From NCBI GenBank assembly GCA_050178385.1, contig JBFXGD010000107.1, positions 1 to 11,846 on the forward strand: a stretch of DNA of 11,846 bases, read 5' to 3'. The notes beneath the pieces were generated by a model that saw only the letters and a program-made list of their open reading frames with translations, did no database searches and had not been told where the DNA came from. This DNA is from Calditrichaceae bacterium (GTDB taxonomy: Bacteria; Calditrichota; Calditrichia; Calditrichales; JBFXGD01). The position numbers and the translations under genes are program-made. Below are positions 1,061-11,846 of the stretch, one piece after another; the first letter of the stretch is position 1, and every line of letters begins with the position of its first letter.

Positions 1061-1128
1061 AGAGTTCTCCTTATGTTGATATGAAAATTTTACTTCGCAA
1101 TAAAACTTTCTCAATTTTGGAGAACTCT
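1061..1128 (-). promoter_or_regulatory. Fold-back able to sequester the transposase RBS
   Basis: Perfect 10-bp inverted repeat AGAGTTCTCC (1061-1070) / GGAGAACTCT (1119-1128). One arm carries the GGAG of the SD directly before the ATG. Confidence 0.6.
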
Positions 1129-1157
1129 TGTCTATATTATTTTATAAATCCATATTA

Positions 1158-1176
1158 AAAACTGTCCGAACTATTG
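1158..1176 (-). repeat. Putative left terminal inverted repeat of the IS (CAATAGTTCGGACAGTTTT)
   Basis: About 100 bp upstream of the transposase start and resembles termini I recall for this IS group. The partner IR is absent, so it cannot be confirmed from the window. Confidence 0.5.
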
Positions 1177-1355
1177 AAAATAAACAAACCTTATTTTATC
1201 CACCGATCCTAACATAGGGCCATCCCCAATGCCTGCCAGGGTAGGAATCGTTCTTTCGGATTTCAATCCTTCAATCTGTAACACAATTTGATCCAAACAG
1301 ATATCCCCCTTTGATGATGCCTGCGATATTCTGGATAGGTCATCTCGCACAATCT

Positions 1356-1433
1356 AAAGAATGTTTTCATTCCTTTTAAGATATAAATCATTTTATATTG
1401 ACATATAAAGGATGATGTGATTCATATATTTTC
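1356..1433 (+). promoter_or_regulatory. Candidate promoter/operator region of the xre-cas operon
   Basis: Consensus -35 TTGACA at 1398-1403, with only a weak -10 at canonical spacing. Inverted repeats GAATG-N4-CATTC (1359-1372), ATATAAA-N4-TTTATAT (1381-1398) and ATGA-N6-TCAT (1412-1425). No SD in front of ATG 1434. Confidence 0.45.
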
Positions 1434-2552
1434 ATGGATCAGAGTCTCAGCTTTATAGGAAAAAATATTCGTTTCTATCGCAGGTCAAGAAATTGGACCC
1501 TGAAACAACTGGCATCTAAAATCGGAATACAGGAAGGCCCGCTTGGCAGAATTGAAAGAGGGCAGAACCTGCCTTCTGCAACAGTGATTTTTCAGCTGTC
1601 TCAGGTTCTCAATATTCCTACTGATGCTATTTTTGCCTCCCGGATTTCAGAGGCCCAGGCAGTTGTTGAGACAGATTCCCTATTTATGACAACTGGATCT
1701 GAATCATTGCCCGCACCTTTGATAGATGCCTGTCAGGAGATAATGACGGCTTTCCACTGTCTTGAAGATGTCTGTCAGGTACAAAAATATGCCAAGCTCC
1801 CTCTTTTCATTCCTTTTGAACCAAATTATTCCGGCATGGAACAACTATCTGAAATGGTTAGAAATTATCTTGGCATCAGTGATGCGATTGTCTTTGATTA
1901 TTTTGAACTCTTTGAAAATTTTGGCCTGCGAATCCTGGTTTTTCCATTCATGAAGCAGGCCAGGGACATTGGCGCTGTTTCCTTCTATGAGCCCGACTAT
2001 CACAATGCATTTTTTTTCCTCAATGCTTTAAAAAACCCAGAAAAACAATTGTTTTCTCTTGCCCTTGAATTGGGCAAAATTCTCATTTTCAATCAGATAA
2101 AAAACTGCAGAGATAAATATCTTTTCGTCCCTGTCGCTAAAGAACAAGAGCGTCCCATTAATGAACTCCGCGCTGCTAAACGATTTGCCGCAACCTTTCT
2201 TACGCCAGCAACAGCCGTCCATGCCACTATCAGTCAGTTGGGTATTATTCCTGAGAATTGGACGTGGGACCTGCTCTTGAGAATTAAACACCGCTTCGGC
2301 GTATCAGCGGAATCATTCCTGTATCGCCTAAAAGAGTTGAACCTTATTTCCGATAAGTCGGCAGAAGAGATTCAATCCAGAATCCAAACCTTTTACAAAA
2401 ATACTCGATATAAGGAACCGGGTTCGTCCAAAAGAATTCTTAACTCCAATGGTCGTTTTTTTGACTTGCTGTTAACGGCATCATCCATCGAATCGGAAGA
2501 AACAGAAGAGATTCATGAAGTAGTGAACCGGTATAAAATTATGTGCGGGTAA
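1434..2552 (+). CDS. XRE-family HTH transcriptional regulator fused to an ImmA/IrrE (DUF955)-like domain with a degenerate HExxH motif
   Basis: N-terminal Cro/C1 HTH (IGKNIRFYRRSRNWTLKQLASKIGI...IERGQNLPS...LSQVLNI). C-terminal DUF955 signatures: EKQLFSLALELGKIL (consensus about RqrFTLAHELGHl), AKRFAATFLTP and FGVSAESFLYRLKELNLI. 372 aa. Confidence 0.85.
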   Translation: MDQSLSFIGKNIRFYRRSRNWTLKQLASKIGIQEGPLGRIERGQNLPSATVIFQLSQVLNIPTDAIFASRISEAQAVVETDSLFMTTGSESLPAPLIDACQEIMTAFHCLEDVCQVQKYAKLPLFIPFEPNYSGMEQLSEMVRNYLGISDAIVFDYFELFENFGLRILVFPFMKQARDIGAVSFYEPDYHNAFFFLNALKNPEKQLFSLALELGKILIFNQIKNCRDKYLFVPVAKEQERPINELRAAKRFAATFLTPATAVHATISQLGIIPENWTWDLLLRIKHRFGVSAESFLYRLKELNLISDKSAEEIQSRIQTFYKNTRYKEPGSSKRILNSNGRFFDLLLTASSIESEETEEIHEVVNRYKIMCG

Positions 2553-2570
2553 TATTCAAGGAGGCTTGAC

Positions 2571-3584
2571 ATTCAACTAATAGTCAACTCAAGCGGAACT
2601 CTGATCAAACAGAGAAATGAAATATTTTTGTTCCAGAACAAGGAAAACAAACTTGAATTGTCACCACTTAAGCTGGAGTCAATCATTATTTCCAACCAGG
2701 CCATGATCTCAACAGCGGCTATCTCCTTGGCGCTGGAGCACAACATTGATCTCGTATTTCTTGATAAATACGGCTTTCCTTTAGGCAGGGTCTGGTTCTC
2801 TAAAATGGGTTCCACTGCAACGATTCGGAGAAAGCAACTCGAAGCAGCAGAAGTCGATATCGGGGTGAAACTGGTGCTTGGTATGATACAAAATAAATTG
2901 GAAAACCAAATTGCTTTTCTAAAGAAACTCAAATACGCCCGACCAGATAAAAAGGATCTGTTTGACACCCCCATACATACTATTCAGGGGTCCCTCGAAT
3001 CTTTGGACTGCGATCTCAGGGATCTTGAAGAATCCCGATCTCTTATTATGGGGCTTGAAGGCGCTGCCGGTCGAGCTTACTTTTCCTGCATTTCCAGAAT
3101 TATGCCGGAAAACTATCGTTTTAAAGGGCGCTCAAGACATCCGGCATTGGACCCATTTAACGCGGCCTTGAATTATTGCTATGGCGTCCTTTATTCACAA
3201 GTTGAGAAAGCCTGTATCATTGCAGGGCTTGATCCTTTTGTAGGATTCATGCATACGGATAACTACAACAAAAAATCTTTGGTCTTCGACCTCATTGAGC
3301 CTTTTCGTATTTTTGCAGATCAGGTATCAGTCTATTTTTTTACCGGCAAAAAAGCAAAAGACGAATACTTTCATATCCAGGAAAAGTCCTGCTCACTCAA
3401 CACAAAAGGCAAACCACATATCATAGAGGCACTTAACAATCACCTTGAAGAAAAGGTCCGTTACCGCAATAAAAATGTAAAAAGAAAACACATCATAAGT
3501 CACGAGGCGCACCGTTTAGCCAACATTCTTTTGGAGGATTCAGGAATGGCACGTCCCGACTGGCTCGAAATAAAGGAGTTCTAA
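2571..3584 (+). CDS. cas1: CRISPR-associated integrase Cas1 (337 aa from a probable ATT start; the ORF track gives TTG 2628)
   Basis: IDLVFLDKYGFPLGR, MGLEGAAGRAYF, DPFNAALNYCYGVLY, GLDPFVGFMH and LVFDLIEPFR, so catalytic E/H/acidic residues are present. The frame is open upstream to give xQLIVNSSGTLIKQRNEIF, like Cas1 N-termini. SD AAGGAGG at 2558-2564 lies 6 nt before ATT 2571. Confidence 0.95.
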   Translation: MQLIVNSSGTLIKQRNEIFLFQNKENKLELSPLKLESIIISNQAMISTAAISLALEHNIDLVFLDKYGFPLGRVWFSKMGSTATIRRKQLEAAEVDIGVKLVLGMIQNKLENQIAFLKKLKYARPDKKDLFDTPIHTIQGSLESLDCDLRDLEESRSLIMGLEGAAGRAYFSCISRIMPENYRFKGRSRHPALDPFNAALNYCYGVLYSQVEKACIIAGLDPFVGFMHTDNYNKKSLVFDLIEPFRIFADQVSVYFFTGKKAKDEYFHIQEKSCSLNTKGKPHIIEALNNHLEEKVRYRNKNVKRKHIISHEAHRLANILLEDSGMARPDWLEIKEF

Positions 3585-3585
3585 A

Positions 3586-3885
3586 ATGAGTTCCATCCTG
3601 GCTTGGATTATGTACGATATTGCAGAAAACAAAAGCCGGAACAAGGTAGCAAAAACTTGCAAAAAATATGGCCTGACCCGGGTCCAGAAGAGTATCTTTC
3701 TTGGCCGTCTGGACATCAACCGCTTCGACGAACTGGCCGAACACTGCCTGGATCTTATGAATGAAGACACAGACAGTGTCTACCTCTTTCCCTTTTGCCA
3801 GGAGGATTTTCGCCGCATCCACGTTTTGGGACAGGGTTTTGACCGGAAACTGGTGAATGATGAAATTCTTTCTAAATTCTTTTAA
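3586..3885 (+). CDS. cas2: CRISPR-associated Cas2
   Basis: 99 aa with WIMYDI, YGLTRVQKSIFLG and DSVYLFP. Follows cas1; SD AAGGAG at 3573-3578. Confidence 0.95.
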   Translation: MSSILAWIMYDIAENKSRNKVAKTCKKYGLTRVQKSIFLGRLDINRFDELAEHCLDLMNEDTDSVYLFPFCQEDFRRIHVLGQGFDRKLVNDEILSKFF

Positions 3886-3902
3886 CGTTGGAAACTCATG
3901 AC

Positions 3903-4568
3903 ATGAAAAAAGCTGTCTTAAAATTAAACAATGTTTCCCTGAAACCCGAGCAGGTTCACAAGTTGCGAGGTTTTGTCGGAAATTTATTCAAAGATCACGA
4001 TCTAATCCACAATCATAATCAGGAAACGGGCAAGGTCATATATCGTTATCCCTTAGTTCAGTTCAAGCTGATTGACCGGGTTCCATCTATTCTATGTGTC
4101 ACGGAAAAGGCGGTGACGGTGTTCCATGATCTTTTTATGAAACTGGATACCGTTACCATCGACGGCATGGAAATCCCAATTTTTGAAAAAGACTTGAAAT
4201 TGGAGGACGTGGCTTTCGGCTATTCAGATGAGACATTTGTCTACGAGTTCCAGAGTCCCTGGATCGGGCTTAACCAGAAAAACTACGCTGAATACGAAAA
4301 CACTCCTGATGAAACCGCACGCAAAGATCTGCTCAAACGTATTCTCACCGGCAACATCCTGTCCATGAGCAAATTTCTTGACGACCGACTTGCACCTGGC
4401 CAGACCATCCGTACGGATCTGACTGTTAAACCCGGGGCTGTAAAATTAAAGGGGAAATCCATGATAGGCTTTAAAGGCGTGATCAAAACCAATTTCATAA
4501 TTCCGGATTACCTGGGCCTTGGCAAATCGGTGTCGAGGGGCTTCGGAGTTGTCAGGAGGATCATATGA
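3903..4568 (+). CDS. cas6: crRNA-processing endoribonuclease Cas6 (Cas6b type)
   Basis: LRGFVG, LIHNH and YRYPLVQFK (Cas6b-like catalytic region), SPWIGLNQKNY, and C-terminal G-loop YLGLGKSVSRGFG. Start is ATG 3903 or TTG 3888. Confidence 0.92.
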   Translation: MKKAVLKLNNVSLKPEQVHKLRGFVGNLFKDHDLIHNHNQETGKVIYRYPLVQFKLIDRVPSILCVTEKAVTVFHDLFMKLDTVTIDGMEIPIFEKDLKLEDVAFGYSDETFVYEFQSPWIGLNQKNYAEYENTPDETARKDLLKRILTGNILSMSKFLDDRLAPGQTIRTDLTVKPGAVKLKGKSMIGFKGVIKTNFIIPDYLGLGKSVSRGFGVVRRII

Positions 4569-6427
4569 TAGAAGCCATTGCCGAATTGGGCAGGCATGCC
4601 CTTGCACAGGACCCATCTGTGTCCATGTTTGATATCTGGCTTGAGGACTCTTACAATGATGGACAAAATGAGCACTTGTTTCTTGTTGTTTTTGAGAAAA
4701 CGGGCGATGCCTGGTATTACAAAGGGATTGATTACCGGCAAAACGGAAAAGCTTTAAAGGCCAAGCTCCTCTATAAACGCGGTTCTTCACGTGGGAGTAA
4801 CAAAACACCCACAGGACAGGTATCCGCAGATATCGGTAAGACCTTTGACCAAAGAATCAAAGGCTGGTTTGAAGCATATTGTGAAGCAAGTTTTCTTGAT
4901 AAAGACGACCAGACATTTCTTACAAATATCAGGGATGTTATCCAGGATCACGGGGCAGACATCCGTGAAGATTTGAATAGCAAGCTGCAACAAGTTGAGG
5001 GTAAAGGAGCTGTCCTTTCGGTTTTGTTTATTGATGGGGGGCAACCCAAATTCCCGGGCGACTATCCGTTCTTTTCTCGATTTATTACTGAAGAATGTGT
5101 CAAAGAATATAAATACTCAAAAACGTTTAAAAAGTACTCTTATTCCAACCAATCGACCTGTTCGGTCTGCAAGCAAATAAAAGATGAGGTTTTTGGATAT
5201 TTTACTACGCTGAAGTTTTACAACGTGGATAAACCGGGCATGGTTTCAGGTGGTTTCCGGCAAGATCAAAGCTGGAAAAATTATCCGGTTTGCCTGGATT
5301 GCGCTTTGAATATCGAAATGGGCATTAAGGTTATGGAGTCTAACCTTGATTATAGTCTTTATGGACTGCGGTATTACCTAATTCCCAAACTCATTCGTCC
5401 TACAGGCTCGGACCCTTATCTTCTTGATACGATTTTTAATCTTAAAAAAGATTTGAAGATCAACGATCAGGACAGGCAGACCATTACCGGCCAGGAAGAT
5501 GAAGTTTTTGATCTGGTGAAAGAGGAAGAGAATCAGATCAGTTTTAATCTTGTTTTTTACGACAAGCCCCAAAAAGAAGTGTTTCGGATTCTTGCTAATA
5601 TCGAAGATGTTTTGCCCTCCCGGATCAGATGTCTGTATGATGTAAAGGACTGTGTGGACCGAATCGTATTTTTTCAGAAATTATCCAAAGAAGGGAAACG
5701 GATTTTTCGGTTTCATTTCGGCGTGATCAGGCAGTTTTTTCCCAACGATAAAATGAATGGAAATTATAATAAATCATTTCTTCAAATCGTGGATAATGTG
5801 TTTAAGAGTGCATCCATCGGGTACTCTTTTGTTCTGAGCCACATCATGAAAATTGTGAGAAAAGCATTTATTGCCGAGGAGAATGATTGGTTTTTCACTC
5901 TTCAAGGATGGATGTTGCTTATTTATTTAAACGAACTTGGCATATTAACCGACAACTGCGAAAAGGAAAGACCTATGGATCAGATGTTTTTTCAATCATT
6001 CGAAATAACGTCCAAAGAGGAGTTTGAAGATAAAGTGACTTTTTTCTTTGAGACATTCCAGAATTTTTTCAGGACAGATGCCCATAAAGGGGTTTTTCTC
6101 CTTGGGGTATTAACAAAACTATTACTGAACATTCAGTCTCAGGAAAGAAACTCAACCCCCTTCCGCTCGCGTCTGAAGGGGCTTAAGATGGACAGCCGGG
6201 ATCTGATCGGTCTGCTGCCTATAATCGTCGATAAACTCGAACAGTACCAAAAAAATTACTATTCTCGTCTTGAAACACTGATTTCCAAATTCATGATTGC
6301 AGCCGGGGATCACAATAAGTGGGAGATCCCACTGGATGAGCTGAACTATATTTTTGTCCTTGGTATGAACCTGTCCGACTATTTTAAAATCGAAAAATCG
6401 GAAAAGAATACCGTTACTAATCCCTAA
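4565..6427 (+). CDS. cas8b: Type I-B large subunit Cas8b (TM1802/Csh1 family)
   Basis: 620 aa between cas6 and cas7. MIEAIAELG start, CSVC...FYNVDKPG...YPVCLDC Zn-type motifs, C-terminal FLLGVLT...LLNIQ...PF and YIFVLGM. ATGA overlap with cas6 and SD AGGAGG. Confidence 0.9.
   Translation: MIEAIAELGRHALAQDPSVSMFDIWLEDSYNDGQNEHLFLVVFEKTGDAWYYKGIDYRQNGKALKAKLLYKRGSSRGSNKTPTGQVSADIGKTFDQRIKGWFEAYCEASFLDKDDQTFLTNIRDVIQDHGADIREDLNSKLQQVEGKGAVLSVLFIDGGQPKFPGDYPFFSRFITEECVKEYKYSKTFKKYSYSNQSTCSVCKQIKDEVFGYFTTLKFYNVDKPGMVSGGFRQDQSWKNYPVCLDCALNIEMGIKVMESNLDYSLYGLRYYLIPKLIRPTGSDPYLLDTIFNLKKDLKINDQDRQTITGQEDEVFDLVKEEENQISFNLVFYDKPQKEVFRILANIEDVLPSRIRCLYDVKDCVDRIVFFQKLSKEGKRIFRFHFGVIRQFFPNDKMNGNYNKSFLQIVDNVFKSASIGYSFVLSHIMKIVRKAFIAEENDWFFTLQGWMLLIYLNELGILTDNCEKERPMDQMFFQSFEITSKEEFEDKVTFFFETFQNFFRTDAHKGVFLLGVLTKLLLNIQSQERNSTPFRSRLKGLKMDSRDLIGLLPIIVDKLEQYQKNYYSRLETLISKFMIAAGDHNKWEIPLDELNYIFVLGMNLSDYFKIEKSEKNTVTNP
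5975..6427 (+). CDS. cas11: Probable internally translated small subunit Cas11 (150 aa), in frame inside cas8b
   Basis: AAGGA (5963-5967) lies 7 nt before in-frame ATG 5975 (KERP|MDQMFF...), at the linker before the helical C-terminal domain. Internal Cas11 translation is established for types I-B, I-C and I-D. Confidence 0.65.
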   Translation: MDQMFFQSFEITSKEEFEDKVTFFFETFQNFFRTDAHKGVFLLGVLTKLLLNIQSQERNSTPFRSRLKGLKMDSRDLIGLLPIIVDKLEQYQKNYYSRLETLISKFMIAAGDHNKWEIPLDELNYIFVLGMNLSDYFKIEKSEKNTVTNP

Positions 6428-6439
6428 GGAGGTTCCAAA

Positions 6440-7441
6440 ATGACTGATATAAACAAACGCAGTGAATTACTTTTTCTCTATGACATTGAGAATTCGAATC
6501 CCAACGGAGACCCCAACGATGAAAACAAGCCTAGAATTGATGAAGAAACAGGCCGGAACATCGTGACTGATGTAAGACTGAAACGTACAGTCCGGGATTA
6601 CCTGTTTGAAAAAGGAAAAGATATTTTTGTTCAAGAAAAAGTCTACGATGATGAAGGCCATATACAGGATGCAAAACTCAGAGCACTGGATTATCTCAGG
6701 GATCAGGAGGATTTAAGTAACAAGAAAGCCGAGGAGCAGAAACAGATCATTTCCCGGAACATTCTGGGGGAGTGCATTGATGTTCGCCTTTTTGGTGCAA
6801 CGATTCCGCTGGACCTAAAGGTTAAGGATGGGAACAAAACAAAAAGCGTTTCCAGTTCATTGACCTATACGGGGCCGGTCCAGTTTAAAATGGGAAAATC
6901 GGTGCATGGGGTTAAAATCATGCATGTGAAAGGAACCGGTGCCTTTGCATCGAAAGAGGGGGCAACAAAGAAAACATTCAGGGAAGAGTACGTCCTTCCA
7001 TATTCGCTAATCGGGTTTTACGGAATTGTGAATGAAAATGCTGCGAAACACACCAAGCTTACCGAGGAGGATATGGCTGATCTTAAAAAGGCCATGTGGA
7101 ACGGCACCAAAGGTCTGATTTCAAGATCTAAGTTCGGTCAGATGCCAAGGCTGCTTTTGTGCATCACTTATAACGAACCTAATTTTTTTATCGGGGAACT
7201 GGATAACCGTATCCGCCTCAAAGCAGATTGCATTGATTCCAAAATCAGGAAACCGGAAGATTACGCTGTAGACCTTACTGAGCTTGTGGAAACCGTCAAA
7301 TTACATAAAGATAAAATCAAAAGTGTGGGATATGTGAGTGACAGAAAAATGAGTTACCTGATTAACGGGAAACCCATTACCCTTGATTGTAAGGAATTGA
7401 AACAACTTAATTTTATAGACGAATCTGCTGAGGTCCTGTGA
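6440..7441 (+). CDS. cas7: Type I-B backbone subunit Cas7 (Csh2/Cas7b)
   Basis: NPNGDPNDENKPRID, VTDVRLKRTVRDY, IDVRLFGAT, TGPVQF and SRSKFGQMPRLLL. SD TAAGGAGG. Confidence 0.95.
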   Translation: MTDINKRSELLFLYDIENSNPNGDPNDENKPRIDEETGRNIVTDVRLKRTVRDYLFEKGKDIFVQEKVYDDEGHIQDAKLRALDYLRDQEDLSNKKAEEQKQIISRNILGECIDVRLFGATIPLDLKVKDGNKTKSVSSSLTYTGPVQFKMGKSVHGVKIMHVKGTGAFASKEGATKKTFREEYVLPYSLIGFYGIVNENAAKHTKLTEEDMADLKKAMWNGTKGLISRSKFGQMPRLLLCITYNEPNFFIGELDNRIRLKADCIDSKIRKPEDYAVDLTELVETVKLHKDKIKSVGYVSDRKMSYLINGKPITLDCKELKQLNFIDESAEVL

Positions 7442-8148
7442 TGGGCAAAGCGCTTTCTTTTATACTGAGGGGGGATTACGGTCATTTCAAGAAATATTAC
7501 ACCACCACCTCCCCCCTGACATTCGAGTTTCCTCCGCCACCTACGATAATTGGTATCGTATCCGCCATTATCGGTCTTGACAAAGAAACATATCTCCATC
7601 ATTTCCCGGACAATTCCTGGAAAATTGCCGTGTGTATTACCAGGACCGTTAAAAAGGTCAGGTGGACAGTGAATATGGTTGATACGAAACAGCATTTCTG
7701 GAGGATCAAGAACCGGACCCAGATCCGGACCGAATACCTTAAGGACCCCGAGTTCAGAATTTACTTTTATCACTCGGATAAGGATTTGTATGAGCTGTTG
7801 AAAGAAAAGCTTTCCAGCCATCAATCCGTGTATACAGTATCCCTTGGCTTAAGCGAACTTATCGGAGATTTCTCCTTTGAAGGTGAATGGCCTCTTACGG
7901 AGTGTGACGATACCGGATTTCAGGAAATCCGTTCGGTGGTTCCCGTGTCCTGTTTGCAGGATGACTCCTCCGTGGCTTTTGACAGTGGCCTGGAGTTGTT
8001 CAAAGTCAATTATCCGGTGTCAATGGCCCCGGATCGCACGGTGACAAGACGGGACGATGTCTTATTTGAGCGTTGTGCCAGGAGCATCTCCTGCAAAGTT
8101 CGCCAATCATTTGATACAGGTAAAGGTGACCGTATTGTGTTCTTCTGA
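7441..8148 (+). CDS. cas5: Type I-B Cas5 (Cas5h/Cas5b)
   Basis: GDYGHFKKYYTTTSPLTFEFPPPPTIIGIVSAIIGL and EYLKDPEFRIY...VYTVSLGLSE. Start is ATG 7441 or GTG 7438, overlapping the cas7 stop. Confidence 0.93.
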   Translation: MGKALSFILRGDYGHFKKYYTTTSPLTFEFPPPPTIIGIVSAIIGLDKETYLHHFPDNSWKIAVCITRTVKKVRWTVNMVDTKQHFWRIKNRTQIRTEYLKDPEFRIYFYHSDKDLYELLKEKLSSHQSVYTVSLGLSELIGDFSFEGEWPLTECDDTGFQEIRSVVPVSCLQDDSSVAFDSGLELFKVNYPVSMAPDRTVTRRDDVLFERCARSISCKVRQSFDTGKGDRIVFF

Positions 8149-10531
8149 GCTGCTTTCCCACCCTGAAAAACGGCTTATTGATCATATGGGACGGGTAGCC
8201 GAGGCCTGTGTCTCAAAATTTAATGAAGATCAGAGCAACTTTGGACAATATTTCAGCCTTGACCATTGGAAGTGTCTGATATGGCTTATGGGCTTTTTTC
8301 ATGACATCGGCAAGGCCACGTCTTTTTTTCAGGAATACCTGGTAGAAAAAAACGAAGATAAAAAACAGGTCATGAAAAATGATCCCATGACCAGGCATGG
8401 CCTTCTATCCGCTGTGATCGCACATTTCTGTGTATCCCTGTATTGTGAAGCGTATCCGGAAAAAAACGATGTGTGGCAAGTTATGCCATTGTTTATTTTT
8501 CTTTGCATCAAAAGGCACCATGGGAATATGGGAAACGCCATCCGGTTTAAGGGCTCGGACAATGAATTGGACAGTACTGAGCCAACGCATTTGGATGCCC
8601 AGATTCAAGCATGTTCAAAGGCGGAAATAGATGATTTCCTGAAACATATGGAGCAAAAAACCGGACTTGAGCTTTCAGCAGAAGAGTTTCCACATTCCTG
8701 GCAAAATTATTATACAAAAAATATCGCCAGAGCTGAAAACAGGAAGCTCTTTAGAATCCCCCAAAACACCGAACACTATTTCATTTTTCAGTACCTGTTT
8801 TCTCTGTTGCTGCATTCGGATAAAGAGGAGGCTATTTTCAGCGGTTCCCTGAGTATCAAACGCAGTCCTATCCCGGACCATATTGTCCGGGATTACATAA
8901 CACGGCAGTTCGGGAAACCTGAAAACAGGATGGATCAAATACGATCGAATATATTTGATGATGCGGAACGATCCATTATGGATGCGGATATCCGGTCAAA
9001 CCATATTTTTTCGTTAAATGTCCCCACAGGTACAGGGAAGACGTTCACCTGCCTGTCGGTGGCACTTAAACTGAGAAAACGGCTGGAAAAGCCGGGGCCA
9101 ATACCTCGAATTATTTACGCCCTTCCATTTACCAGCATTATTGATCAGAATTATGAAGTCTTCAAAAAGGTGCTTTCCGTTCCCGATTCATCAATCCTAT
9201 TGAAACACCACCATCTGGCAGATATGTGTTACTCAGCCGGGCTTGACGAATTTGAAACCGGTGAATCCAAATTTTTGATTGAAAGTTGGACGTCTGAAAT
9301 CATCGTGACTACCATGTTTCAGGTTTTTCATACCTTTTTTACGAATAGAAACAGGATGATTCAGAAATTCAGGATGTTTGCCAATGCCATCGTACTTCTT
9401 GATGAGGTTCAATCTCTGCCGTACAAGTACTGGGTGATCGTCAGAAAAAGCATGAAACTCATGGCCAGCCTTTTACACACCCGATTCATTCTGATTACGG
9501 CCACTCAGCCCAAACTATTTGAAGACAATGAAATCATCGAACTGGTCCCGGATAAGCAAAAGTATTTTTCCCAACTGGACAGGGTGACCCTGACCTTCCA
9601 TGAAACGCCCCTCACGTTATCTGACTATGCTGAGCTTTGCAAAGATGGAGTGCGGACGAGCGACGAATCATTTCTATTTGTTATGAATACGGTCAATTCT
9701 GCGATAATTCTGTATCAAGCTCTGGCTAATGTCGATCCAGATGCGGATTGTTTTTTTCTGTCCACCAATATTATCCCGACTCACCGCCGGAAACGTATCC
9801 GGGATATCAAAGAAAGTTCCCGGAAAAAAATTATAGTTTCAACGCAGATGATTGAAGCCGGTGTAGATATTGACGTGGAAAATGTCTGGCGGGATTCGGG
9901 GCCGTTAGAATCCATCAATCAAGTGTGCGGCAGATGTAACCGAAATTTTAAAGAAGGCCGTAAAGGCCGTGTCCGTCTTTTTCAGATCCTGGATGAGAAT
10001 AATAGAAATACGCCATTTGAAAAATATGTTTATGGAGAAAATGCCCTGTCCATGCTGGAAACTAAAACCATTATCTCGGAAAAGCCTGAAATCTCCGAAA
10101 CGGATTTTCTCCAAAACATGGATCGATATTACGCGGAAATTCAATCCAAACAAAACAATGAAGGTTCAAATGAGCTCCTTGAATATATGGACAACCTTCA
10201 GTTTCAGAATGTTTATAAAAATTTTCACCTCATTGACCCGGTTAATTATGATTTGAAAGACGTGTTTATTGAATGGGATGAAACAGCCCAATCAGTCTGG
10301 AAGAAATACCTGGAGATCAAATCCTTTTGTAATCCGATAAAAAGAAAAGAGGCTTTTCTGAAGATTCGAAAAACACTTTATGATTATGTCCTGTCAGTTC
10401 CGTCGAAATATGTGCCTGATCAAGAGTTTGAAGGGACATTTTTAGTATATACCTGGCGCGACTCGCTTTCAGCATGTTATGATGAGGCTACCGGCTGGAA
10501 AAGAGATACGGGCGGGACTTTGGCTTTTTAG
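8135..10531 (+). CDS. cas3: Cas3 HD nuclease-helicase
   Basis: SHPEKRLIDH, HDIGK and RHHG (HD domain); PTGTGKT (Walker A), LLDEVQ (Walker B), ITATQP, STQMIEAGVDID and QVCGRCNR. Start placed at TTG 8135 behind AAGGTG (8123-8128) rather than ATG 8057, which would overlap cas5 by 92 nt. Confidence 0.95.
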   Translation: MCSSELLSHPEKRLIDHMGRVAEACVSKFNEDQSNFGQYFSLDHWKCLIWLMGFFHDIGKATSFFQEYLVEKNEDKKQVMKNDPMTRHGLLSAVIAHFCVSLYCEAYPEKNDVWQVMPLFIFLCIKRHHGNMGNAIRFKGSDNELDSTEPTHLDAQIQACSKAEIDDFLKHMEQKTGLELSAEEFPHSWQNYYTKNIARAENRKLFRIPQNTEHYFIFQYLFSLLLHSDKEEAIFSGSLSIKRSPIPDHIVRDYITRQFGKPENRMDQIRSNIFDDAERSIMDADIRSNHIFSLNVPTGTGKTFTCLSVALKLRKRLEKPGPIPRIIYALPFTSIIDQNYEVFKKVLSVPDSSILLKHHHLADMCYSAGLDEFETGESKFLIESWTSEIIVTTMFQVFHTFFTNRNRMIQKFRMFANAIVLLDEVQSLPYKYWVIVRKSMKLMASLLHTRFILITATQPKLFEDNEIIELVPDKQKYFSQLDRVTLTFHETPLTLSDYAELCKDGVRTSDESFLFVMNTVNSAIILYQALANVDPDADCFFLSTNIIPTHRRKRIRDIKESSRKKIIVSTQMIEAGVDIDVENVWRDSGPLESINQVCGRCNRNFKEGRKGRVRLFQILDENNRNTPFEKYVYGENALSMLETKTIISEKPEISETDFLQNMDRYYAEIQSKQNNEGSNELLEYMDNLQFQNVYKNFHLIDPVNYDLKDVFIEWDETAQSVWKKYLEIKSFCNPIKRKEAFLKIRKTLYDYVLSVPSKYVPDQEFEGTFLVYTWRDSLSACYDEATGWKRDTGGTLAF

Positions 10532-10552: not shown

Positions 10553-11143
10553 ATGAATAACAGCTTTTCTTTAACGGCAACCCATCTTCTGGAATATCTG
10601 TACTGCCCTCGTTACACCTACTTTGAGCATGTACTTGCTATCCCAGAGAACCAAGGAAATCGTTTCAAAGTCCAAAAAGGCCGCACCGTTCACGAAAAAA
10701 TAAGGTCCATGAACCCTGACTATTTGCGAAAGAAAATAGGCGTGGTCGATAAAAAAGCAGATATGTACCTTTCCAACCAGGGAATGCGTGGGGTTGTTGA
10801 CGAGATCCTTTTTCTTGATGACGGCACTGCGGCGCCATTGGATTACAAATATGCCGAATACAAGGACCGGGTGTTTAAAACCTATAAGCTCCAACTTGCG
10901 TTTTATGGACGATTGATTGAAAAAAATTATGATGTCCCGGTAAACAGAGGATTTATCATCTATACCCGGAGTAAAAATAAGTTGATAGATGTTCCCCTGA
11001 CCGGTAAAAATTATGATGAACTAGAAATGACGATGCACGGAATTGCCGATGTGATTGACCGTTGCCGTTTTCCGCAACCCACCACGGTAAAAAATAGGTG
11101 TTCGGATTGTTGTTACAGGAATTTATGCAGTGGTGGCCAATAA
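10553..11143 (+). CDS. cas4: Cas4 RecB-like nuclease
   Basis: EYLYCPR, GRTVH, GVVD, LDYK, QLAFY and C-terminal CSDCCYRNLC (Fe-S cysteines). 196 aa. Confidence 0.93.
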   Translation: MNNSFSLTATHLLEYLYCPRYTYFEHVLAIPENQGNRFKVQKGRTVHEKIRSMNPDYLRKKIGVVDKKADMYLSNQGMRGVVDEILFLDDGTAAPLDYKYAEYKDRVFKTYKLQLAFYGRLIEKNYDVPVNRGFIIYTRSKNKLIDVPLTGKNYDELEMTMHGIADVIDRCRFPQPTTVKNRCSDCCYRNLCSGGQ

Positions 11144-11398
11144 AAGAATTGATCGTTGACTATGGGAGTGATAAAAATCATATAATCCATTAAATGGTGG
11201 TTTAAAAAAAATGATTGATCCAAAATTATTGGGGTTTTCGTTAAAATATAAATATGAACTATAAAAACAATCAGTTTTAGACCTCTGGTAACTCCCAATA
11301 AGGTGGTTTTATAACATGTGCCTTCAAAACGATCAAATTTCGCTCTTTGAAAATTTATGTAAACCGATTGATTTTAATGAAGATTTTAAAAAAATGGG
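11144..11398 (+). promoter_or_regulatory. AT-rich CRISPR leader
   Basis: 255-bp non-coding AT-rich stretch between cas4 and the first perfect repeat. TTGACT (11156-11161) and TATAAT (11181-11186) are separated by 19 bp. Confidence 0.8.
11361..11373 (-). promoter_or_regulatory. IHF-like binding site in the leader
   Basis: The minus strand reads AATCAATCGGTTT, one mismatch to WATCAANNNNTTR, ending 25 bp before repeat 1. Confidence 0.45.
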
Positions 11399-11846
11399 CT
11401 TCCGGAACCACTTCCAGAACAACAAGGATTGAAACATCGTTACAATAGTTGCAACTGTATTTCATTTTTCAACTTCCGGAACCACTTCCAGAACAACAAG
11501 GATTGAAACCAAACTCAAGCTCCCGTAGTTCGTCCTCGGACATGCTTCCGGAACCACTTCCAGAACAACAAGGATTGAAACAACCAGATTGAAGATAAGG
11601 GAGATTTATAGCATGACTTCCGGAACCACTTCCAGAACAACAAGGATTGAAACCAAACGTCCTGTCGTTTATAACAGTTCCATCCATTCTTCCGGAACCA
11701 CTTCCAGAACAACAAGGATTGAAACTTGGAGAGTAACAAGTCCGTAAAGCGCCAATTTTTCTTCCGGAACCACATCCAGAACAACAATGATTGAAACTTA
11801 ACACCAAGGAAAAATAAGCCAGCAATAAAAAACTTACGGAACCACT
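11399..11846 (+). CRISPR. CRISPR array, 37-bp repeat CTTCCGGAACCACTTCCAGAACAACAAGGATTGAAAC, runs off the window end
   Basis: Repeats start at 11399, 11473, 11545, 11617 and 11689 (identical), 11761 (T14A, G28T) and 11833 (partial, C4A). Spacers are 37, 35, 35, 35, 35 and 35 bp. The 3' ATTGAAAC handle and the leader position give + orientation. Confidence 0.99.

Follow-up and report, generated by a model that had tools for sequence, protein, structure and literature searches.

The window analysed here, meaning the whole stretch of 11,846 nucleotides, is an entire contig (JBFXGD010000107.1, C107) of a Calditrichaceae bacterium represented by a metagenome-assembled genome (MAG) of 320 contigs that is 94% complete. 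Pfam matches reveal a complete type I-B CRISPR-Cas locus in the order cas1-cas2-cas6b-cas8b-cas7-cas5-cas3-cas4, with the subtype indicated by a cas8b of the TM1802 family together with cas6b, cas7, cas5, cas3, cas4, the cas1-cas2 pair and an adjoining array (Table 1). The subject of this analysis is the first gene, cas1, which encodes the enzyme that writes new CRISPR immune memories. A sequence-only reading of the window had proposed that this gene begins at an ATT codon behind a perfect Shine-Dalgarno (SD) sequence, and had considered a translational throttle, a recent mutation and a sequencing error as explanations.

At the 5' end of cas1, the TAA stop codon of the upstream gene, the SD sequence AAGGAGG, the hexamer CTTGAC (2565-2570) and the ATT follow one another, and the next codons are CAA CTA ATA GTC AAC TCA AGC GGA ACT (QLIVNSSGT). 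The cas1 frame is open from 2553, and the TAA of the upstream gene lies in the same frame, 18 nt before the ATT. No ATG, GTG or TTG occurs in frame from this stop up to TTG 2628 at codon 20 (codon 11 is CTG in the window), and there is no SD-like run in the 30 nt upstream of that TTG. Thus, the positions of the SD and the ATT, their 6-nt spacing and the absence of an earlier canonical codon all stand as the sequence-only reading had given them. AAGGAGG occurs only twice in the window, with 1.6 copies expected by chance anywhere, and both copies lie on the plus strand, 6-7 nt before the starts of cas genes (cas1 and cas7). The predicted RNA fold around the start (2521-2640) leaves the cas1 SD mostly unpaired and is not notable in its stability (minimum free energy -21.2 kcal/mol, z = -0.6 against shuffles). 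A promoter and terminator scan of 1100-4000 gave counts close to the shuffle expectation and placed no promoter-like site in the gap that separates cas1 from the upstream gene. A four-codon open reading frame (ORF) from TTG 2566, also present in the related locus L031, was set aside, as by eye it is not kept in other clade members and is attributed to shared ancestry.

The protein read from the ATT matches the Pfam family PF01867 (Cas_Cas1) in full length, with residues 3-289 covering positions 1-282 of the 283 in the profile (E 5e-75; 252.7 bits, the curated cut-off being 22.3), so that profile position 1 falls on residue 3 of the ATT-started protein, and in the best solved Cas1, 4n06, residue 2 of the query is aligned to chain residue 4. 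An AlphaFold2 model built on an alignment of 83 sequences (mean predicted local distance difference test score, pLDDT, 82) places strands at residues 2-5, 10-15 and 18-23, with a pLDDT of 87-93 over the first 30 residues. A start at TTG 2628 would therefore lose two strands and part of the third, in agreement with the earlier statement that it lacks an SD and would remove the first strands. Within the 83 sequences, E163, H228, D240 and E243 are invariant; these are presumably the metal-binding catalytic residues of studied Cas1 proteins. In combination, these observations support the ATT at 2571 as the only credible start and TTG 2628 as not credible, and judged from the sequence AUU 2571 is very probably the true start of cas1.

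For comparison of the first codon, DNA loci were collected from species-representative genomes (55) and metagenomes (69), and the 125 loci whose alignment reaches the Cas1 N-terminus were counted. Codon 1 is ATT in 15 loci, ATC in eight, ATG in 83, GTG in three and TTG in three. For the other 13, from distant Cas1 families, the register does not capture the start, and the GTG count includes the broken locus L032, which was read out of register. All intact loci at 75% identity or more carry ATT or ATC. Among the named records, the cultured isolate Desulfocicer vacuolatum DSM 3385 has ATC, a Desulfospira MAG has ATC, and Desulfobacula MAGs have both ATC and ATT. ATT or ATC is also found at 64-67% identity, in a Desulfamplus MAG, one Muiribacteriota-labelled MAG, L097/L098 and L149. 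No canonical codon lies in frame between the upstream stop and codon 1 in 20 of the 23 ATT/ATC loci, the exceptions being L089 (TTG at -18), L149 (GTG at -54 and -42) and L087 (contig end). Where the in-frame stop is visible, it lies 15-36 nt upstream in 21 of 22 loci, and 93 nt upstream in L149. The sequence features expected of a sole ATT/ATC start are present: no canonical in-frame start, a close stop, a spaced SD and a codon kept in orthologues. The alignment of orthologous loci that the sequence-only reading had called for came out opposite to the case that would have marked the ATT as a private mutation, and a recent ATG-to-ATT change in this genome is rejected, as ATT or ATC stands in all close orthologues that are intact.

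Cas1 proteins from 60 genomes of the host's relatives in GTDB are all at or below 44% identity to that of the window. Six such loci align to query residue 1, and their starts (five ATG, one TTG) match the ATT of the window exactly. The next canonical codon in the clade shifts among codons 11, 20, 28 and 39, and codon 20 is not conserved in relatives, where it is TTG, TTA, CGN, TGC or AGR.

Two loci appear to have aberrant starts of their own. In L032 (L032:2032-3046), an 87% identical cas1 from a Thermodesulfobacteriota MAG, TCT GAA replaces the start and second codons and a frameshift lies near codon 32, marking either a decayed copy or an assembly error. In L013 (G039:C158), which encodes another Cas1 family, there is no canonical in-frame start between the stop 45 nt upstream and the conserved N-terminus. 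An in-frame ATA immediately follows GGGAGA, two codons ahead of the aligned start, and the homologue L020 has ATG; L013 may be another non-canonical or broken cas1 start.

A quick IQ-TREE phylogeny was computed from 83 unique Cas1 proteins with codon 1 left out, 42 of the 125 rows having been dropped as exact duplicates (16), broken, incomplete or short (6), below 44% identity (6) or members of distant families (14). One clade of 17, with a Shimodaira-Hasegawa-like approximate likelihood ratio test (SH-aLRT) support of 99, contains all 16 ATT/ATC rows and L036, which has ATG and is nested inside the clade (SH-aLRT 98-99). The remaining 66 rows all start canonically. The minimum number of start-type changes on this tree is two, compared to a mean of 14.8 when the labels are shuffled, and within the clade there are at least five changes among ATT, ATC and ATG. 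This distribution makes one gain of the ATT/ATC start, followed by one reversion in L036, the likely history.

An ungapped alignment of the 17 clade members shows where coding begins. The first and second bases of codon 1 are invariant, and the codon periodicity, in which the third base varies freely while the other two are conserved, starts exactly at this codon. Q2, N6 and G9 are invariant in the clade while using all or most of their silent variants. Upstream, the SD block (-12 to -7) is the only conserved stretch. Silent sites are saturated, with three or four different bases seen across 12 sequences at 42 of the 47 four-fold sites that are invariant, and dS to the nearest relative of the window is 1.44. 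Among clade members, dN/dS is 0.05-0.09 in the six pairs with measurable dS, and in codons 2-19 the proportion of synonymous differences exceeds that of non-synonymous differences (pS > pN) in 8/8 pairs compared.

The SD itself differs between the two kinds of loci. A match of at least 5 nt at a spacing of 5-8 nt precedes codon 1 in each of the 15 ATT/ATC rows whose upstream sequence is long enough, while 17 of 41 bacterial canonical rows have such a match at any spacing in the last 20 nt; for matches of at least 6 nt, the counts are 12/15 and 8/41. The ATG member L036 keeps AAGGAGG. The ATG-start type I-B Cas1 proteins, which include a Desulfobacterales-type sister clade, archaeal relatives and PDB 4n06, belong to the same family and share the N-terminus M/I-Q-L-V-I-N-x-x-G. 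The bacterial sister loci often have the same cas1-cas2-cas6b order but differ in starting with ATG (rarely GTG or TTG), mostly without a strong SD. As these ATG loci often lead with cas1 too, gene order alone does not explain the codon.

In public annotations, this start is mostly passed over. Of 63 homologues listed from a large protein database at 69-94% identity, 59 are shorter than 337 amino acids (293-333), and 29 of these start at the Met of codon 11. Two of the remaining four are 337 amino acids long, and two are read in from upstream, with Ile at position 1. The next 57 homologues, at 61-67% identity, include 53 of 337 amino acids that begin MQLVIN. Gene callers take TTG 2628 in the window, giving a 318-amino acid product. 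The cas1 gene of L035/L101 is recorded with five starts (P0029, P0035, P0042, P0060 and P0064), at ATT codon 1, ATA codon 5 and ATG codons 11, 33 and 45, and the NCBI record P0029 of 337 amino acids has M for the ATT, so that at least one record already calls it. In the cultured Desulfobacula toluolica Tol2, a candidate carrier of such a start, the protein record has Cas1 annotated from Met 11.

Initiation factor 3 (IF3) discriminates against near-cognate starts of the AUU/AUC type, and in Escherichia coli infC, the gene of this factor, IF3 represses its own AUU start, the weak codon closing an autoregulatory loop. The cas1 start resembles E. coli infC in being a sole Ile-type near-cognate start behind an SD, kept across taxa. 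The host genome uses SDs, since GGAG is found at -20 to -4 of 24% of its 2274 long ORFs, compared to 3% of random positions. Its own infC (G000 contig C55, ~18526-18541, locus L155) reads AAGGAG, 7 nt and ATC at 18539, with no ATG, GTG or TTG before the IF3_N domain, and by its sequence probably starts at AUC. The layout AAGGAG-N7-ATC is the same as the AAGGAGG-N6-ATT of cas1 and is the classical IF3-controlled arrangement. Unlike infC, Cas1 has no known link to IF3 and could be at most a passive reader of its activity.

According to one report, AUA, AUC, AUU and CUG initiate at 1-2% of AUG in E. coli, and an AUC-started reporter bore an N-terminal Met (10.1101/063800). The same report gives infC and pcnB as confirmed AUU-start genes in E. 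coli, with pcnB start codons alternating among AUG, GUG and UUG across phyla in a survey (10.1101/063800). The cas1 start would be like that of E. coli pcnB in placing a weak codon on a gene of which only a little product is wanted, and unlike it, according to that survey, in that ATT/ATC is held throughout a clade. A rare ATT start is reported to attenuate expression of ebpA in Enterococcus faecalis (PMC4447247), and a GTC start of Streptomyces sigR is reported to be repressed by IF3 (PMC5472188). These are single genes in single genera that were tested experimentally, whereas the cas1 case is drawn clade-wide from sequence. A full-text literature search found no description of a non-canonical cas1 start among the matches listed; the candidates set aside concern a TTG annotation of cas4 in Francisella, which is not a cas1 start, and ureF of Synechocystis, whose ATT annotation is unrelated. 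Ile-type non-canonical starts are already known as a kind from infC and pcnB, and cas1 is a further case.

Several explanations would place the true start elsewhere or deny it altogether. A sequencing or assembly error, or a private start loss that silences cas1, might be suspected in a MAG of so many contigs, particularly as the relative L032 has a broken cas1. However, at least part of the stretch is contained in 20 public runs from 13 studies (all DNA or of unrecorded type), four of which were compared. In X2, X3 and X5, runs that belong to three studies, the contigs covering 2571-2573 show 0 differences there. X2 is a single contig over 1400-3900 and is possibly the source of the window DNA itself, X3 spans 2357-2629 and X5 spans 2381-2686; X6, with the more divergent strain, lacks a contig across 2491-2730 and gives no information on the codon. 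These near-identical strains exclude the sequencing error that the sequence-only reading had allowed for and do not address conservation, on which the ATT/ATC codons common to 23 loci, including an isolate genome, do bear. With the ORF intact and under purifying selection, artefact or decay is exceedingly improbable. The stop codon in the cas1 frame only 18 nt upstream could instead suggest an N-terminal extension, by readthrough from the HTH-M78 gene or by termination and reinitiation, in which the ATT would be an ordinary Ile codon. A homologous HTH-M78 gene also precedes cas1 in L031 and L088, where it ends in a different frame. Elsewhere in the clade the order cas1-cas2-cas6b is kept while the upstream neighbours differ: a sulfate permease (L033) and a DNA methylase (L101/L035), both on the opposite strand, a WYL regulator (L149) and cas3 (L042). 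This variety rules out, for the clade, that cas1 is reached by readthrough out of an upstream gene or is necessarily coupled to one, and with only the SD conserved between stop and codon 1, an extension is scarcely credible. A downstream start, at TTG 2628 here and at the codon-11 ATG common in the clade, with the first 10-19 codons as an untranslated leader, is what gene callers choose for most close homologues (59/63 at 69% identity or more). Against it stand the protein-type conservation of codons 2-10, with free third positions and the invariant Q2, N6 and G9, the excess of pS over pN in codons 2-19, the shifting position of the next canonical codon, the missing SD of TTG 2628, the SD that lies 5-8 nt before codon 1 in 15/15 rows, and the three confidently predicted strands of residues 2-23 with 4n06 aligned from residue 2, which together leave this explanation very improbable.

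The reading favoured here, at a probability of roughly 0.8, is that of a genuine, long-maintained weak start at which a strong SD sets a low, IF3-sensitive output of Cas1. Under this reading, one clade of type I-B loci led by cas1-cas2-cas6b would have swapped ATG for an Ile-type near-cognate codon and then drifted between ATT and ATC while the strong SD was held. The AAGGAGG 6 nt upstream would position the ribosome on AUU 2571, and by inference from E. coli the initiator tRNA would read AUU or AUC, giving an N-terminal Met at about 1-2% of the AUG rate, with IF3 discrimination keeping Cas1 low and allowing it to rise when IF3 activity falls. Throttling of adaptation at translation is plausible, given that AUU and AUC yield 1-2% of AUG in E. 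coli. The competing explanation, compensated drift, accepts the same start but has a slightly deleterious loss of ATG followed by a stronger SD that restored output, with no regulatory role. In keeping with it, ATT/ATC has a single origin, the revertant L036 retains its strong SD, so that ATG is viable in such a context, G and A at the third base are not significantly depleted, and the mostly weak SDs of the ATG sister loci may mean that a wide range of initiation is tolerated. On the other hand, with silent sites saturated, ATT/ATC persists in 16 of 17 unique lineages at such low dN/dS, although, on the E. coli figures, initiation would increase 50- to 100-fold with the single base change that makes ATG; this retention implies that higher Cas1 output is at least not favoured. 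Compensated drift is accordingly held as a possible but less probable account. Between low output as the selected state and a start-codon loss that was compensated by the SD and then tolerated, the balance is nearly even and tips slightly towards selection. The argument for selection on ATT/ATC is indirect, being drawn from saturation, constraint, the distance of one transversion to ATG and the 16/17 retention.

Several points weigh against a selected weak start, or against its certainty. Initiation at AUU is deduced from the sequence, not observed, and many clade members have an ATG at codon 11, from which a second, shorter Cas1 product may be made. Neither G nor A is significantly depleted in the third position of codon 1: third-base G makes up 16% at four-fold sites against 1/17 unique clade members, 5/47 four-fold sites are as purine-poor as codon 1, and 2/12 invariant Ile sites likewise lack ATA. 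Constraining the ATT/ATC rows to one group costs 30 log-likelihood units, but the approximately unbiased (AU) test does not reject such a tree (p = 0.065, on a 29-row subset under LG+G4), so that one gain and one reversion are likely rather than certain. As the ATT/ATC state arose once, its pairing with a strong SD counts as one evolutionary event rather than as repeated evidence. The numbers for efficiency and IF3 belong to E. coli and are carried over by analogy to these bacteria. Additionally, the comparison with the host infC assumes that the contig of the window was binned correctly; its GC content is 0.417 vs 0.418.

A more specific proposal, considered unlikely, is that the AUU/AUC start makes Cas1 synthesis a read-out of IF3 activity and thus a translational gate on CRISPR adaptation, retained in one clade of type I-B systems. 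Under such a gate, a drop in initiation fidelity, caused by stress, an imbalance of ribosomes or IF3, or perhaps phage takeover of translation, would let Cas1 output jump from its strong SD and switch on spacer acquisition.

The remaining features of the window and of related loci are collected here (Table 1). A gene of about 375 amino acids with HTH_3 and Peptidase_M78 domains stands directly upstream of cas1 in the window, in L031 (L031:1360-2487) and in L088 (L088:174-1325), and another (L044:389-1531) lies about 1 kb upstream of cas1 in an ATG-start sister locus. Regulators with WYL/WCX domains adjoin cas1-cas2 in L149 and L138. Both kinds of gene may be recurrent regulators of these loci. 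The AAG GAG that serves as the cas2 SD also encodes the Lys-Glu of ...IKEF, the conserved C-terminus of Cas1. The longest cas3 ORF has a 92-nt overlap with the end of cas5, and the HD domain is matched only from residue 47 onwards; translation of cas3 may in fact begin at a later codon. In the CRISPR array, the last two repeats carry substitutions, and an extra partial, altered repeat lies at the contig end. The AT-rich region 11144-11397 beside cas4 is probably the leader of this array. An ORF of 205 amino acids on the minus strand upstream of the locus (497-1114) matches part of the DDE_5 transposase profile (positions 55-113 of 272) and is probably what remains of a transposase.

Table 1. 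Features of the window, with positions counted from its first nucleotide.
Feature	Position	Strand	Basis or remark
HTH_3 + Peptidase_M78 (ImmA/IrrE-like) gene	1434-2552	+	Pfam; TAA stop 2550-2552
SD AAGGAGG of cas1	2558-2564	+	6 nt 5' of the start codon
cas1 ATT initiation codon (very probable)	2571-2573	+	aligned with ATG of distant orthologues and ATT/ATC of close ones
cas1 coding sequence, 337 codons + stop	2571-3584	+	Pfam Cas_Cas1
TTG at cas1 codon 20, rejected as start	2628-2630	+	first canonical in-frame codon
AAGGAG, SD of cas2	3573-3578	+	within the last cas1 codons; 7 nt 5' of the cas2 ATG
cas2	3586-3885	+	Pfam; ATG one base past the cas1 stop
cas6b	3888-4568	+	Pfam
cas8b	4565-6427	+	Pfam
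cas7	6440-7441	+	Pfam
cas5	7438-8148	+	Pfam
cas3	8057-10531	+	Pfam
cas4	10553-11143	+	Pfam
CRISPR array	11398-11846	+	37-nt repeat, six full repeats, six different spacers; reaches the contig end

The truncated calls in public records remove the predicted N-terminal strands of Cas1, and family models, structural work and expression constructs taken from such records would begin at the wrong residue. For the biology of these loci, the question of how spacer acquisition is kept rare yet available is an open one in the CRISPR field. A weak start held clade-wide on the integrase gene offers a lever on this question that can be tested genetically, as cultured carriers exist.

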